DNA of 5,494 nucleotides from Escherichia phage Lilleto. Location of the stretch: the sequence record MK629529.1; one strand, written 5' to 3'. Positions 1 to 5,494 of the stretch are shown one piece after another. The translations under genes and the position numbers were made by a program. Under the pieces are notes generated by a model. That model was not told the DNA's origin. It did no database searches and saw only the letters and a list, made by a program, of their open reading frames with translations. How positions within the stretch are numbered: position 1 is the stretch's first letter; the number at the start of each line of letters is the position of its first letter.

Positions 1-1635
1 ATGTCTGTAGAATTAGTAAAACCACTCGTCGAAGCCGCTGGTATGTCGACACTTACACAATCCCCAAACCTCCGTATCTGGAAACAGGTAAACACCCGCG
101 TAAAACTCTTAGAAGAAATCCTTGCTCACTGGACAAATGGAATCCGTCGCTGCCCTGAAACCCAAGACTTCTACATGAACCCAAATTCTCAACTGGCTAC
201 CACTATTGCCTATCGTGCCCATCAAAAAGGACACAACCCAAAACTTATTCAATACCCTGATACATTTACTCTTGACGATATTATTCGCCGTAAACCAATC
301 CCTCAAACTGCCCCTAACGAATTGCGCCTCTCTGATGAAATCGGTGAGGATTACCGCCTTACAGTTATCGCTATTGCTGACGAACTGCAAGAATGTTACG
401 ACGTGCTCGGACAACTTGATATTAATAACACTATAGACCACACCCCTAAAGGTAACGCCCACTGGAGTATGCTTTATGATAAACCTGTTAACACCCATTG
501 GTCACAGCTCGTATCTAAACGACCCCTTAAAGATATCCGCGCCGATTACAACTATGCAAAGGCGAAGGGTATTAAGGATGAATGCTCAAAAATGCTTGAG
601 GAATCCACCATGAAATCACGCCGGGGCTTTACCGTTCAACGATTGATGAATGCTATGCGCCAAGCCCACACTGACGGCTGGTATGTTGTATTCGACACTC
701 TTACTCTGGCCGATGATCGCATACAGGCTTTCTATGATAATCCCAATGCTCTTCGTGACTACTTCCGTGATATTGGTCGTATGGTGCTTGCTGCCGAGGG
801 TCGCTCTGCTAATGACTCACACGCCGACTGCTATCAGTATTTTTGTGTTCCAGAGTATGGCACACAGCACGGTCGTCTACATTTCCACGCAGTGCATCTT
901 ATGCGCACACTTCCTCTGGGTTCTCGTGACCCTAACTTCGGTAAGCTGGTACGCACTAATCGCCAAATAAATAGCTTGCAAAACACTTGGCCTTACGGCT
1001 ACTCTATGCCCATCGCAGTCCGGTACTCCCAAGACGCATTCTCGCGCGCTGGCTGGCTCTGGCCTGTCGACTCAAAGGGTGAACCCCTTAAAGCTACCTC
1101 GTATATGGCTGTCGGCTTCTACGTCGCTAAATACGTCAACAAAAAATCTGATATTGACATGGCCGCAAAAGGCCTAGGGAATAAAGAATGGAACGCATCA
1201 CTGAAAACCAAAATCTCTCTACTACCAACCAAACTATTCAGAATCCGAATGTCCCGCAACTTCGGGATGAAGATGTTATCAATGGCGCACCTGACCGCCG
1301 AAACATTAATCCAACTGACCCAACTGGGCTACGACTCGACCCCGTTCAACAACGTCTTGAAACAGAACGCCAAGAAAGAGCTGAAATCGAGGCTGGCAAA
1401 AGCATCTGTCGCGACCGTTTTGGCGGCGCAACCTGTAACGACCAATCTGCTAAAATTTATGCGCGATTTGACCCGAACAATCGGAGCGTCCAACCTGCAG
1501 AATTTTATCGCTTCAATGACTCAGAAATTAACACTCATGGATACTTCTGATGAAACCAAAAACTACCTTGCTGCTGCAGGAATTACTACTGCTTGCTTAC
1601 GAATTAAATCGAAGTGGACTGCTGGTGGAAAATGA
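1..1635 (+). CDS. A: Replication initiation protein A (rolling-circle HUH endonuclease)
   Basis: 544-aa ORF from the track. HUH-type motif HFHAVH and the paired catalytic tyrosines in [12 protein letters not shown] (Tyr codons at 1120-1122 and 1132-1134). C-terminal two thirds closely resemble phiX174 protein A from memory. Stop TGA 1633-1635 overlaps the gene C start. Start at nt 1 assumes the genome was rotated to the A start; if circular, GGAGG at 5481-5485 lies 9 nt upstream. Confidence 0.94.
412..441 (+). other. ori(+): Viral (+) strand origin of rolling-circle replication, 30-nt core nicked by protein A
   Basis: Exact occurrence of CAACTTGATATTAATAACACTATAGACCAC, the conserved 30-nt origin embedded in gene A of phiX174-type phages (from memory). 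Expected nick between G418 and A419. Confidence 0.85.
610..1635 (+). CDS. A*: A* protein (in-frame internal initiation within gene A)
   Basis: In-frame ATG at 610 (A residue 204) preceded by GAGGAA at 598-603. Product is 341 aa beginning MKSRRGF, the same length and N-terminus I recall for phiX174 A*. Expression is not provable from sequence. Confidence 0.6.
976..1005 (+). promoter_or_regulatory. Candidate promoter P_B inside gene A
   Basis: TTGCAA at 976-981, 18-nt spacer, TACTCT at 1000-1005, about 185 nt upstream of gene B. The -10 match is weak; the call rests mainly on position by analogy to phiX174. Confidence 0.25.
1188..1550 (+). CDS. B: Internal scaffolding protein B
   Basis: 120-aa ORF in a different frame, fully inside gene A. 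C-terminal part ([25 protein letters not shown]....[15 protein letters not shown]) matches my recollection of phiX174 B. ATG 1188 preceded by AGGGA at 1176-1180. Stop TGA 1548-1550 overlaps the K start. Confidence 0.9.
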
Positions 1636-2351: not shown

Positions 2352-2430
2352 AGGCAAATCATATCGCCGCGGCTCTGCTGGCAACAAAAAAGGCTCCCGC
2401 CTCTGGTACGTTGGCGGCTCACAATTCTAA
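2344..2430 (+). CDS. J: Small basic DNA-binding/packaging protein J
   Basis: Hand-translated: MAKGKSYRRGSAGNKKGSRLWYVGGSQF, 28 aa, stop TAA 2428-2430. Basic N-terminus and the conserved ARLWYVGG.QF-type C-terminus of J proteins. AAGGAA at 2331-2336 upstream. Confidence 0.8.
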   Translation: MAKGKSYRRGSAGNKKGSRLWYVGGSQF

Positions 2431-2438
2431 CCTCCTAT

Positions 2439-2456
2439 GTGGGACCACGGTCCCAC
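2439..2456 (+). terminator. J-F intergenic hairpin (terminator or mRNA-stabilising stem-loop)
   Basis: Perfect inverted repeat GTGGGACC / GGTCCCAC around a short loop, followed by TCTATTT. It sits where phiX174-type phages carry the post-J terminator. Confidence 0.5.
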
Positions 2457-2474
2457 TCTATTTAAGGATATAAA

Positions 2475-3761
2475 ATGTCTAATGTTCAAACTTCTGCCTC
2501 TCGTGATGCAATTGATTTATCACATCTGGTCTTCAACACTGGCGCTATTGGTCGCCTTAAAGTCGCATCATGGACCCCTGTTATCGCTGGTGATTCTTTC
2601 CAGCTTGACGCTGTTGGTGCTTTACGCTTATCCCCTCTGCGTCGCGGCTTGGCTATTGACTCAACTGTTGATTACTTCACTTTCTACATTCCACACCGTC
2701 ATATCTATGGCGATGCATGGATTCAATTTATGAAAACTGGTGTCGCTGCCACTTCTCTTAACCCTGTAACTACTGGCGAATACGTTGATAGCGCCTCTTA
2801 TCTTGGTGTAATCCCTTCTGCTGATGGCAAGGTTCCCAAGTTCCTGCACCAAGGCTATCTCAATATTTACAATAACTACTTCAAAGCCCCTTGGATGGCT
2901 GACCGTACTGAGGCAAACCCCTCCAACTTAAACGACGACGACCGTCGTCACGGCTTCCGCTGCTGCCATCTAAAAAACATCTGGTCCGCACCTCTTCCTC
3001 CTCAAACGGAAATCACTCGCGCTATGACTACTGGCGCTACTTCTATTGATATTATGGGTCTGCAAGCTGCTTACGCCCAACTTCACACTGATCAAGAACG
3101 TGACTACTTTATGCAGCGTTACCGTGACGTAATCTCTTCGTTCGGTGGCAAAACTCACTATGACGCTGATAATCGTCCTCTTCTGCTTATGCGCTCTAAC
3201 TTCTGGGCTTCTGGCTATGATATCGACGGCACTGACCAAACTTCATTAGGTCAATTCTCTGGCCGCGTCCAGCAAACATTCCGTCACTCTGTTCCTCGCT
3301 TCTTCGTACCGGAACACGGCGTTATTATGACTCTTCAGCTCGTACGCTTCCCGCCTACCTGCACTGAGGAAACTCACTATCTCGTCGGCAAAGGCGCACT
3401 AAACTATACTGACCTTGCGGGTGATCCAACTCTTTACGGTAACTTACCGCCTCGCGAAATCGAAATGAAAACTCTCTTCCGTGGCGCTGCTGGCTCTACT
3501 GAAAAAATCAAAATTGCCGAAGGGCAATGGTATCGCTATCATCCTTCTTACGTTGATGGACAATATCACAACCTTCAAGGCTTCCCGTTCATCCAAAATG
3601 GTCCAACTGGCAACATGGAAAACCGTGTACTGATTGACCATAAAAAATACGACGAATGCTTCCAATCACTCCAATTAACTCACTGGAATGCCCAGGCTAA
3701 ATACAATGTCACTGTATATCGACATATCCCGACCACACGTGATAGCATCATGACTTCTTAA
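2475..3761 (+). CDS. F: Major capsid protein F
   Basis: 428-aa ORF with high similarity throughout to phiX174 F (e.g. GALRLSPLRRGLAIDSTVD, HTDQERDYFMQRYRDVISSFGGKT, TTRDSIMTS terminus). AAGGA at 2464-2468 upstream of ATG 2475. Stop TAA 3759-3761. Confidence 0.97.
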   Translation: MSNVQTSASRDAIDLSHLVFNTGAIGRLKVASWTPVIAGDSFQLDAVGALRLSPLRRGLAIDSTVDYFTFYIPHRHIYGDAWIQFMKTGVAATSLNPVTTGEYVDSASYLGVIPSADGKVPKFLHQGYLNIYNNYFKAPWMADRTEANPSNLNDDDRRHGFRCCHLKNIWSAPLPPQTEITRAMTTGATSIDIMGLQAAYAQLHTDQERDYFMQRYRDVISSFGGKTHYDADNRPLLLMRSNFWASGYDIDGTDQTSLGQFSGRVQQTFRHSVPRFFVPEHGVIMTLQLVRFPPTCTEETHYLVGKGALNYTDLAGDPTLYGNLPPREIEMKTLFRGAAGSTEKIKIAEGQWYRYHPSYVDGQYHNLQGFPFIQNGPTGNMENRVLIDHKKYDECFQSLQLTHWNAQAKYNVTVYRHIPTTRDSIMTS

Positions 3762-3772
3762 AGCCTATAACG

Positions 3773-3812
3773 TGACAGGGGGCGAAAAATTTTAATTTTT
3801 CGCCCCCTGTCA
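3773..3812 (+). other. F-G intergenic hairpin with 17-bp perfect stem; candidate complementary-strand origin element or terminator
   Basis: TGACAGGGGGCGAAAAA (3773-3789) pairs perfectly with TTTTTCGCCCCCTGTCA (3796-3812) around loop TTTTAA. The F-G intergenic region is where G4-type phages carry the primase-dependent complementary-strand origin and where phiX174 carries a terminator. Confidence 0.5.
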
Positions 3813-3862
3813 GGTTGAACAAGCGCAAGCGCGTTAGCTACCTAACTATAAGGACTACTCAA

Positions 3863-4387
3863 ATGTTCCAGAACTTTGTCACTAAACACAATTCTCCTCA
3901 ATTTACTACTACTATCACAAAGGCTGTCACTCCCGCCGCGTTGGCTCCTATTATTAATACGCCAACCGTTGCGCGTGACAATCTATTTGTGAATCTAACT
4001 ATTACCGCCCTGACTTCTCCGGGCGGTATCTCTGCTGTTGTCGCTATCGACAACTCCTCTCATACCGACAATCAGGTCGTTTCTGTTGCTGCCTCACTTT
4101 CTACTATCGGCAGCCTCGTACCTGTTCTTTGTCGGTTTGAATCTGCTACTGTCCCAACGGCTATCCCCGCCTCTGCGGTTACTTACTATCCGTTGGAATT
4201 TAAATCATCTGATACTACTCTGTCCGTTAAGGACTGCGTTACTGTCTCTACTCTTTCTCGCTCTGGCAATCCTGTTTATGTAGGTATTGCCCTTATTGCG
4301 AAATCATTTGTCGCCGGTACTGTGTACGGCTCCATCTCAATTAATCAGGTTGACCAAGAAATCACAACTCTGCAACCTCTCAAATAA
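3863..4387 (+). CDS. G: Major spike protein G
   Basis: 174 aa from ATG 3863 (MFQNFVTKHNS...), preceded by AAGGA at 3850-3854. Ends ...QVDQEITTLQPLK, like phiX174 G (...QVIKEIICLQPLK). The track ORF begins at a TTG (3815) inside the intergenic hairpin region; that extension is rejected. Confidence 0.93.
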   Translation: MFQNFVTKHNSPQFTTTITKAVTPAALAPIINTPTVARDNLFVNLTITALTSPGGISAVVAIDNSSHTDNQVVSVAASLSTIGSLVPVLCRFESATVPTAIPASAVTYYPLEFKSSDTTLSVKDCVTVSTLSRSGNPVYVGIALIAKSFVAGTVYGSISINQVDQEITTLQPLK

Positions 4388-4396
4388 GGAATCTCT

Positions 4397-5434
4397 ATGT
4401 TTGGTGCAATCGCTGGCGGCATCGCCTCTACTCTTGCTGGCGGTCTAATGTCCAAACTGATGGGCGGCAATAAACAAGCCGCCCCTTTAACTCCCGGACA
4501 AGGCCTCTTTGCTACTCCTGAAACTACTATCTCTGCTGACAATGCAGGTATTCAATCTGTTATGCAGGGACCTAACCCGCCTAGCCCTGATAAGGCGGCT
4601 CCTACATTTACCGAATCTGCCGTCTCCTCACTTAAGGATGCTGGCAAAGGACTCCTCGATGGTACTCTACAAGCTGGCGGCTCTGCTGTTCAACAAGCTC
4701 TTCTTAACAAAATTGGCCTCGGTGGCAAATCTGCTGCTGATAAAGGCAAGGATACTAAAGATTACCTTGCTTCTGCGTTCCCAGAGCTCAACCCGTGGGA
4801 ACGCGCTGGCGCTGGTGCTTCCTCTGCTGGTATGGTTGACGCTGGTTTTGAAAACCAAAAACAACTAACCAAGATGCAACTTGACAACCAAGTCAAAATC
4901 GCTAAGATGCAAAACGAAACTCAAAAGGATATCGCTGGCATCCAGTCTGTCACATCACGCATGAATACTAAGGATTCTGTCTATGCTCAAAATGAAATGC
5001 TCTCTTACAACCAAAAAGAATCTATGTCACGCGTTGGCGCTATTCTCGAAAACACAAGCCTCACCAAACAACAACAAGTTTCTGAAATTATGCGCCAAAT
5101 GCTTACTCAGGCTCAAACCTCAGGACAGCACTTTACTAACGCTCAAATCCAAGAACTTACTCGAAAAGTCGGTGCTGATATTGATGCTGTTCGTGCTAAC
5201 ACTGAACGCACCCATGTAGAAACTGACCGCTCTAAACAGGAAGTCCAAAACTCACGTTATGCTTCATCACAGGTCGGTAAAACCGCCAAGGACGTATCAA
5301 ATGTCATTAGTGACGCATCTTCTGGTATTGTTGATTATTTTCGCGGCGTTGATAAAGCTGTGGCTGACACTTGGAACAATTATTGGAAAGATGGTAAAGC
5401 CGACGGAGTAGGCTCAAATATGTCTCGCAAATAG
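4397..5434 (+). CDS. H: Minor spike / DNA pilot protein H
   Basis: 345-aa ORF: [20 protein letters not shown]-terminus, glycine-rich region, and the KDGKADG.GSN.SRK C-terminus of phiX174 H. AAGGA at 4386-4390 upstream of ATG 4397. Stop TAG 5432-5434. Confidence 0.95.
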
Positions 5435-5435
5435 C

Positions 5436-5465
5436 TTGACAATCACATCATAAATCCTATCTAAT
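5436..5465 (+). promoter_or_regulatory. Candidate promoter P_A in the H-A intergenic region
   Basis: Consensus -35 TTGACA at 5436-5441 directly after the H stop; 18-nt spacer to TCTAAT at 5460-5465 (5 of 6 matches to TATAAT). Would drive gene A transcription across the circular junction. Confidence 0.4.
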
Positions 5466-5494
5466 AGCCTCCATTAACACGGAGGCTCTTTCGA
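5466..5494 (+). terminator. H-A intergenic hairpin (candidate post-H terminator; overlaps the gene A Shine-Dalgarno)
   Basis: AGCCTCC (5466-5472) pairs with GGAGGCT (5481-5487) around the 8-nt loop ATTAACAC, followed by CTTTCGA. The right arm contains GGAGG, 9 nt before the gene A ATG if the sequence is circular. Confidence 0.45.

Follow-up and report, generated by a model that had tools for sequence, protein, structure and literature searches.

A 30-nucleotide stretch identical to the phiX174 viral-strand origin within the diverged N-terminal part of gene A of a G4-like microvirus

We analyzed a stretch of DNA from Escherichia phage Lilleto (the window, 5494 nt in total) and found that positions 412-441 on the plus strand very probably constitute the viral (+) strand origin of rolling-circle replication, ori(+), of a G4-like microvirus belonging to Bullavirinae. 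The site reads CAACTTGATATTAATAACACTATAGACCAC, and its 30 nucleotides are identical (30/30) to phiX174 NC_001422 4299-4328 and to G4 NC_001420 500-529. In the RefSeq record NC_001422, a rep_origin feature is placed at 4306 and described as 'origin of viral strand synthesis'. A sequence-only reading of the window had equated these 30 nucleotides with the phiX174 origin, reckoning with possible mismatches to the canonical 30-mer; alignment with phiX174 4299-4328 gave 0 mismatches. The match is exact and unique, as CAACTTGATATTAATAACACTATAGACCAC occurred once in the window, no second site was found when 3 mismatches were allowed, and the 30-mer appeared in 0/200 dinucleotide-preserving shuffles of the window. 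A second full origin per genome would end replication prematurely, so a single copy of ori(+) is expected. When phage records were searched with the 30-mer, 565 among the matched records carried it at ≥99% identity, and in the deposited relative Lilleen it was located at identical coordinates, 412-441. A full-text literature search for the 30-mer returned no match. The feature itself is already known: it is the canonical phiX174/G4 ori(+), the 30-nt origin described for isometric phages. Every defining feature of a phiX174-type ori(+) that can be checked from sequence is present at 412-441. The value of the assignment is mainly that of annotation, because it locates ori(+) and the predicted nick position in a genome whose closest GenBank relatives carry six annotated genes and no annotated origin.

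The first base of the 30-mer is also the first of a gene A codon (offset 411, frame 0), and the 30-mer occupies codons 138-147, from Q138 to H147. It precedes the A* start codon (M204, nt 610), and thus falls in the N-terminal part that is found only in full-length A. Protein A of phiX174 cleaves and religates its origin at G4305/A4306 (bioRxiv 10.64898/2026.07.25.740675). Given the offset of 3887 between phiX174 and window coordinates, this position maps to G418/A419, which is the predicted nick and religation site G|A (418-419, plus strand) of the window. The same position had been expected from the letters of the window, and the arithmetic of the mapping, which is made by homology, was correct.

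The window comprises an entire microvirus genome, whose genes are ordered as in phiX174 and G4, and it is a G4-like microvirus (subfamily Bullavirinae) of the Lille*/SECphi17 sub-lineage. Its nearest record was Escherichia phage Lilledu (97.7% identity), followed by lillemer, Lilleput, MG1, Lilleen, and SECphi17; this group comes from Danish wastewater and was described as G4-like and placed in Gequatrovirus (PMC7552041). Identity to G4, ID2, and ID18 was ~79-82%, calculated for the alignable part only. Gene A (1-1635, plus strand) is an ORF of 544 aa for the replication initiator, an HUH endonuclease, and it contains the A* reading frame (610-1635, plus strand) with an internal in-frame start, the ATG at 610. 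It is followed by, or overlaps with, genes B (1188-1550), K (1550-1714), C (~1632-1892), D (1889-2344), E (2064-2351), J (2345-2430), F (2475-3761), G (3863-4387), and H (4397-5434). In Lilledu (MK791318) and related GenBank records, six CDS are annotated and the origin is left without annotation. A* (610), B, K, E, and J, which are clearly present in the window, are absent from the annotation of the closest relatives' records.

Codon alignment of gene A with phiX174 revealed that the origin is an island of identity. The N-terminal part (codons <213, origin excluded) showed 56.6% DNA and 47% protein identity, and the C-terminal part showed 79% DNA and 83% protein identity, compared with 100% for the origin. 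The 60-nt bins flanking the origin were 35% and 47% identical to phiX174, and the bin that contained the origin was 80% identical. The maximal exact match with phiX174 covered exactly 412-441, with mismatches at 411 and 442. These values bear out the earlier description of the 30-mer as embedded in a diverged N-terminal half of gene A (57% DNA and 47% protein identity to phiX174), and the comparison inside versus outside the 30-mer that it had proposed gave 100% versus 56.6% DNA identity for the N-terminal part. A run of ≥30 identical nucleotides in the N-terminal part arose in 1/20,000 codon-column shuffles, and the estimate errs on the side of caution, as the pool still contained the ten identical origin codons. 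With G4, ID2, and ID18, the exact run around the origin extended over 42-46 nt.

Across the whole genome, the run at 412-441 was the tied second-longest exact match between the window and phiX174. The longest one (32 nt, window 817-848 and phiX174 4704-4735) consists of A codons in the well-conserved nuclease half of A and is not shared exactly with G4; it may be due to chance, as runs of ≥32 were obtained in 835/20,000 whole-gene shuffles. Another exact match of 30 nt was observed at 2090-2119 (phiX174 594-623) in the gene D/gene E overlap, where E residues ~9-19 read ILAFLLLLSLF. This D/E stretch matched alpha3 and ID21 exactly over 33-51 nt, and spanned 2069-2119 in the comparison with ID21. 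Its conservation reaches at least as deep as that of the origin, also in a clade with two origin changes, and probably results from double coding.

We then considered on which level, DNA or protein, the origin is constrained. All ten origin codons have degenerate third positions. When only codons for the same amino acid were counted, codon identity in the origin was 10/10 against phiX174, 10/10 against L017, 9/9 against Mimer, and 8/8 against alpha3. The corresponding background between the window and phiX174 ranged from 0.39 (N-terminal part) to 0.56 (whole gene), so that the frozen origin codons, set against the 39-56% expected, correspond to roughly P = 1e-4 to 3e-3 per lineage pair. In the metagenomic L017 (53% A identity), the 10/10 origin codons stand amid wholly different flanks, and in Pectobacterium phage Mimer, whose A is ~39% identical, the first 27 nt of the origin are identical. 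Non-synonymous changes within the origin were observed elsewhere, namely I to N and N to S in the alpha3 clade, H to K in Mimer, and Q to L or Q to R in PG19, L032, and L067. Saturation mutagenesis of phiX174 showed that synonymous changes at A codons Q107-D115 are detrimental, which its authors credited to ori(+), and H116, the last origin codon, is absent from the list of detrimental synonymous changes (bioRxiv 10.64898/2026.07.25.740675). The absence of H116 fits with origin positions 28 and 30 being naturally variable. Taken together, the frozen synonymous sites, the tolerated amino-acid changes, and the phiX174 mutagenesis point to selection on the DNA itself at 412-441. The site is another textbook example of a DNA element that acts in cis from within a coding sequence and overrides it.

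The sequence-only reading had proposed that origin function and coding frame both constrain this stretch. The DNA-level part of this proposal was upheld by the 10/10 codons, but a separate protein-level part is inseparable from it, because the peptide follows the DNA. L139, D140, T144, I145, and D146 (LD..TID) were invariant in all aligned A proteins, and this invariance would follow from the DNA constraint alone. It is very unlikely that the peptide of codons 138-147 is essential to A and that purifying selection on the protein has preserved the DNA only incidentally. The five invariant residues would agree with such selection, and together with N143 and H147 they account for seven of the small number of N-terminal residues that are invariant in a six-sequence alignment; also, 2/3 of the origin changes in Vibrio phage PG19 are synonymous. 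Nevertheless, selection on the peptide is at odds with the degenerate third positions, which are all frozen too where 39-56% identity is expected, with the non-synonymous changes that the spacer and the ends tolerate (I to N, N to S, H to K, and Q to L/R), and with the detrimental effect of synonymous mutations at these codons in phiX174. Extremely unlikely, in turn, is an origin of the identity from a short patch acquired by recent recombination or gene conversion, or from an assembly chimera with spiked-in phiX174. Horizontal exchange has been reported among microvirid coliphages, phiX174 is a common sequencing control, and the match of the 30-mer is sharply bounded. However, the 30-mer sits in its own diverged flanks across all G4-like isolates, the Lille*/SECphi17/PJNS002 relatives, the phiX174-like phages, and L017. 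Mimer likewise carries the first 27 nt of it, and the limits of the 30-mer are those of the functional origin in every lineage. Moreover, neither flank in the window is phiX174-like: the upstream flank (gacgtgctcgga) equals that of G4, ID2, and Lilledu, and the downstream flank (acccctaaaggt) is common to Lilledu and PJNS002.

Still less likely is that the conserved item is another overlapping element, for instance an unrecognized ORF on one of the strands, a promoter, or a hairpin formed by RNA or DNA. Overlapping genes are frequent in microvirus genomes, and two mechanical ORFs run over the site, 206-436 on the plus strand and 109-498 on the minus strand, but the conservation ends exactly at the 30-mer and follows neither of them. 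At 412-441, we detected neither a promoter-like nor a terminator-like site, no significant fold, and no Rfam match. In the minimum-energy fold calculated for single-stranded DNA, the 30-mer was fully unpaired and showed no significant structure (z = -0.45), and the Rfam search at the origin matched no family. The unpaired state of the 30-mer indicates that the nick site is not in a hairpin loop, unlike in most HUH Rep origins. GC content is 25% at 410-439, and locally no stretch is richer in A+T than the origin.

Natural variants of ori(+) divide the 30-mer into two cores and a spacer. The left invariant core ACTTGATA (414-421, plus strand; origin positions 3-10) includes the nick site, and it is unchanged in phiX174, the G4-like and alpha3-like phages, Mimer, PG19, L017, and L032/L033, which means in every A-homologue lineage. 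The A+T-rich spacer TTAATAA (422-428, plus strand; origin positions 11-17) is the naturally variable part and forms the palindrome TATTAATA together with its flanks. The right conserved core CACTATAGAC (429-438, plus strand; origin positions 18-27), presumably the binding part of the origin, is invariant across the lineages except for T21A in PG19, and beyond this core, positions 28 and 30 vary. The invariant origin positions are 1, 3-10 (ACTTGATA), 18-20 and 22-27 (CAC-ATAGAC), and 29, and the variable ones are limited to 2, the spacer 11-17, 21, 28, and 30. Both cores are kept in phages whose A is only 33-53% identical. The alpha3 clade carries T11A and A14G, Mimer carries C28A and C30G (AAG), and Vibrio phage PG19 carries A2T, T12A, and T21A. 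In L032/L033 (33-34% A identity), we observed A2G, T11A, a rewritten stretch at 14-17, and C30T (CAT in L032); in L063 (50% A identity), 12-17 is rewritten and C30A is present; and L067 (37% A identity) shows A2G, T12A, T15A, A16T, and C30G. The variant map covers A-homologue lineages only, which were found via the protein except for L067; this one was found via a DNA pattern that fixes both cores, and is therefore uninformative on the cores. The A-like loci L034-L036 (28-31% identity) showed no recognisable origin, with ≥12 mismatches, and the phiX-type origin could not be followed past ~33% A identity.

The phiX174 origin has been described as having separate bind and nick sites, and the picture of two cores plus a spacer agrees with this description (PMC5714925). 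The natural-variation map agrees with the phiX174 mutagenesis as well, in that synonymous changes at Q107-D115 are harmful and the last codon is free. In the 1980s, the Baas/Jansz and Hurwitz laboratories reportedly arrived at a three-part origin composed of a recognition sequence, an A+T-rich spacer, and a binding sequence. The phiX174 work of that time is also said to have found that ~27 nt are sufficient on supercoiled DNA and that alpha3 differs at two spacer positions. The map of natural variation from Mimer, PG19, and several metagenomic microviruses is a small addition.

IMG/VR was scanned with a pattern of the two cores and a 7-nt spacer, resulting in 39 stretches, eleven of which were tested by tblastn. 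An A homologue was found in 6 of the eleven, all of them on microvirus-sized contigs (4.9-5.5 kb). The larger contigs L046, L059, L061, L068, and L078 showed no A homologue in tblastn, and the other large contigs among the 39 stretches are probably chance matches too. A pattern with a 9-nt spacer had three matches in IMG/VR, one of which (L037) was on the strand opposite to the contig ORFs; chance is the likeliest explanation for all three. Within the window, the sole near-match to the nick decamer was CAACTTGACA at 4877-4886 in gene H, with one mismatch. It was considered as a second cleavage site; the rest of the origin is absent there, and the near-match was rejected as a conserved element, as it is found in the Lille/PJNS002 lineage only. 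This decamer overlaps a promoter-like TTGACA-16-TAAGAT (10/12 match), its G4 counterpart is CAGCTTGACA, and it probably represents simply codons for MQLDNQ. In PG19 (L010), a perfect canonical decamer, CAACTTGATA, was observed at 4244-4253 at the start of the pilot-protein gene, and the gene-A origin site of this phage (375-404) reads CTACTTGATA. In the Mimer record (L009, ON872163), gpA (2389-4022, minus strand) is split by a frameshift and annotated as several pieces, and the metagenomic contig L074 (L074/L017) has one N followed by a switch into the frame of gene B; in either case, an error of sequencing or assembly is the probable cause.

Protein A of the window, the cognate initiator, was matched by the Pfam family Phage_GPA (PF05840) at residues 162-385 with E = 2.6e-60. 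With A of G4 it shares 85% identity and with A of phiX174 64-66%, and its M204 aligns with phiX174 M173 and with the A* start of G4. The HUH motif H294-F295-H296 (CAT TTC CAC; 880-888, plus strand) aligns with phiX174 H263/F264/H265, and both His residues were invariant in 11/11 aligned A proteins. The catalytic tyrosine pair in Y374-V-A-K-Y378 (1120-1134, plus strand) aligns with Y343/Y347 of phiX174, a pair whose residues have a reported catalytic role (bioRxiv 10.64898/2026.07.25.740675), and it was invariant wherever the region was present among the aligned A proteins. Similarly, E285 aligns with phiX174 E254 and is conserved. As far as these residues indicate, the cognate HUH nuclease is intact. 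A search for a solved structure of an A relative found none.

The phiX174 mechanism is the likeliest one for the window phage, with every step taken over by homology. The A protein, encoded by the very gene that bears the origin, would first bind the right-hand portion of the 30-mer on supercoiled RF, and this binding would be followed by opening of the A+T-rich spacer. A catalytic tyrosine would then cut the plus strand at G418|A419 and remain joined to the 5′ end, and the 3′-OH would be extended by the host polymerase with the Rep helicase. One round later, the second tyrosine would cut the regenerated origin, and the first would religate the displaced strand into a circle.

The window origin shares with the phiX174 ori(+) the same 30 nt, the frame, and the place in gene A before the A* start and the Phage_GPA domain, as well as the cognate HUH motif and tyrosine pair. 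The two differ in that the origin begins at codon 107 in phiX174 and at codon 138 in the window, and the flanking gene A is ~57% identical. With the ori(+) of G4-like phages (Gequatrovirus), the window has in common the same 30-mer and ~12 nt more upstream (GTGCTCGGA...), but its A is shorter at the N-terminus than that of G4 (544 versus 554 aa), and gene G of the window lineage is very different (PMC7552041). The alpha3-like variant (Alphatrevirus), CAACTTGATAATAGTAACACTATAGACCAC, corresponds to the window origin in position, frame, and both cores, whereas its spacer carries T11A and A14G, both non-synonymous, and the spacer of the window is canonical. Beyond these phages, the origins of CRESS-DNA viruses/geminiviruses and of the plasmids pT181/pC194 are nicked by an HUH/tyrosine nuclease, which becomes covalently linked to the 5′ end, and they support rolling-circle replication that ends by religation (PMC5714925). 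The window origin would share this nuclease-nicked rolling-circle logic with the nonanucleotide in the stem-loop of the CRESS-DNA viruses/geminiviruses and with the double-strand origins of pT181/pC194. In contrast to these viral and plasmid origins, it lies inside the coding sequence of its own initiator, and its enzyme would use two tyrosines for repeated rounds.

The variable spacer raises a further lead concerning its partner in protein A. In AlphaFold 3 models of phiX174 A, two 'wedge' phenylalanines, one of which is F471, are placed in the A+T-rich part of the origin (bioRxiv 10.64898/2026.07.25.740675). F471 aligns with F502 of the window (nt 1504-1506). A Phe at this position was found together with the canonical spacer in five lineages (window, phiX174, G4, L074, and Mimer), and a Ser together with a variant spacer in four (alpha3, PG19, L067, and L077/L042); L063 is a counter-example, with Phe despite a variant spacer. 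On the NJ tree, the Phe/Ser-spacer pattern corresponds to at most one or two independent events. The F471-aligned residue may be a candidate partner of the spacer, a weak lead that is confounded by phylogeny. In the variants from lineages with 33-53% A identity, among them phages of Pectobacterium and Vibrio, the origin behaves like two frozen cores, ACTTGATA and CAC-ATAGAC, around a freely evolving 7-nt spacer. That these variants reflect co-evolution of the origin spacer with protein A is improbable in our estimation. If true, the spacer and the wedge would jointly set origin specificity between microvirus clades.

Several other elements were seen in the genome. The F-G intergenic region contains a near-perfect hairpin at 3769-3816 with 23-nt arms, AACGTGACAGGGGGCGAAAAATT and AATTTTTCGCCCCCTGTCAGGTT, and a small GC palindrome follows at 3822-3835. 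The hairpin region is common to ID2 (56 nt exact) and is unlike the F-G region of G4, where the complementary-strand origin is annotated; hence, the complementary-strand origin of the window lineage may differ from that of G4. A short GC hairpin after gene J (2439-2456), which is terminator-like and followed by a T-rich tail, is in the place of phiX174 T_J, and another short GC hairpin after gene H (5463-5490) is in the place of the phiX174 terminator T_H.
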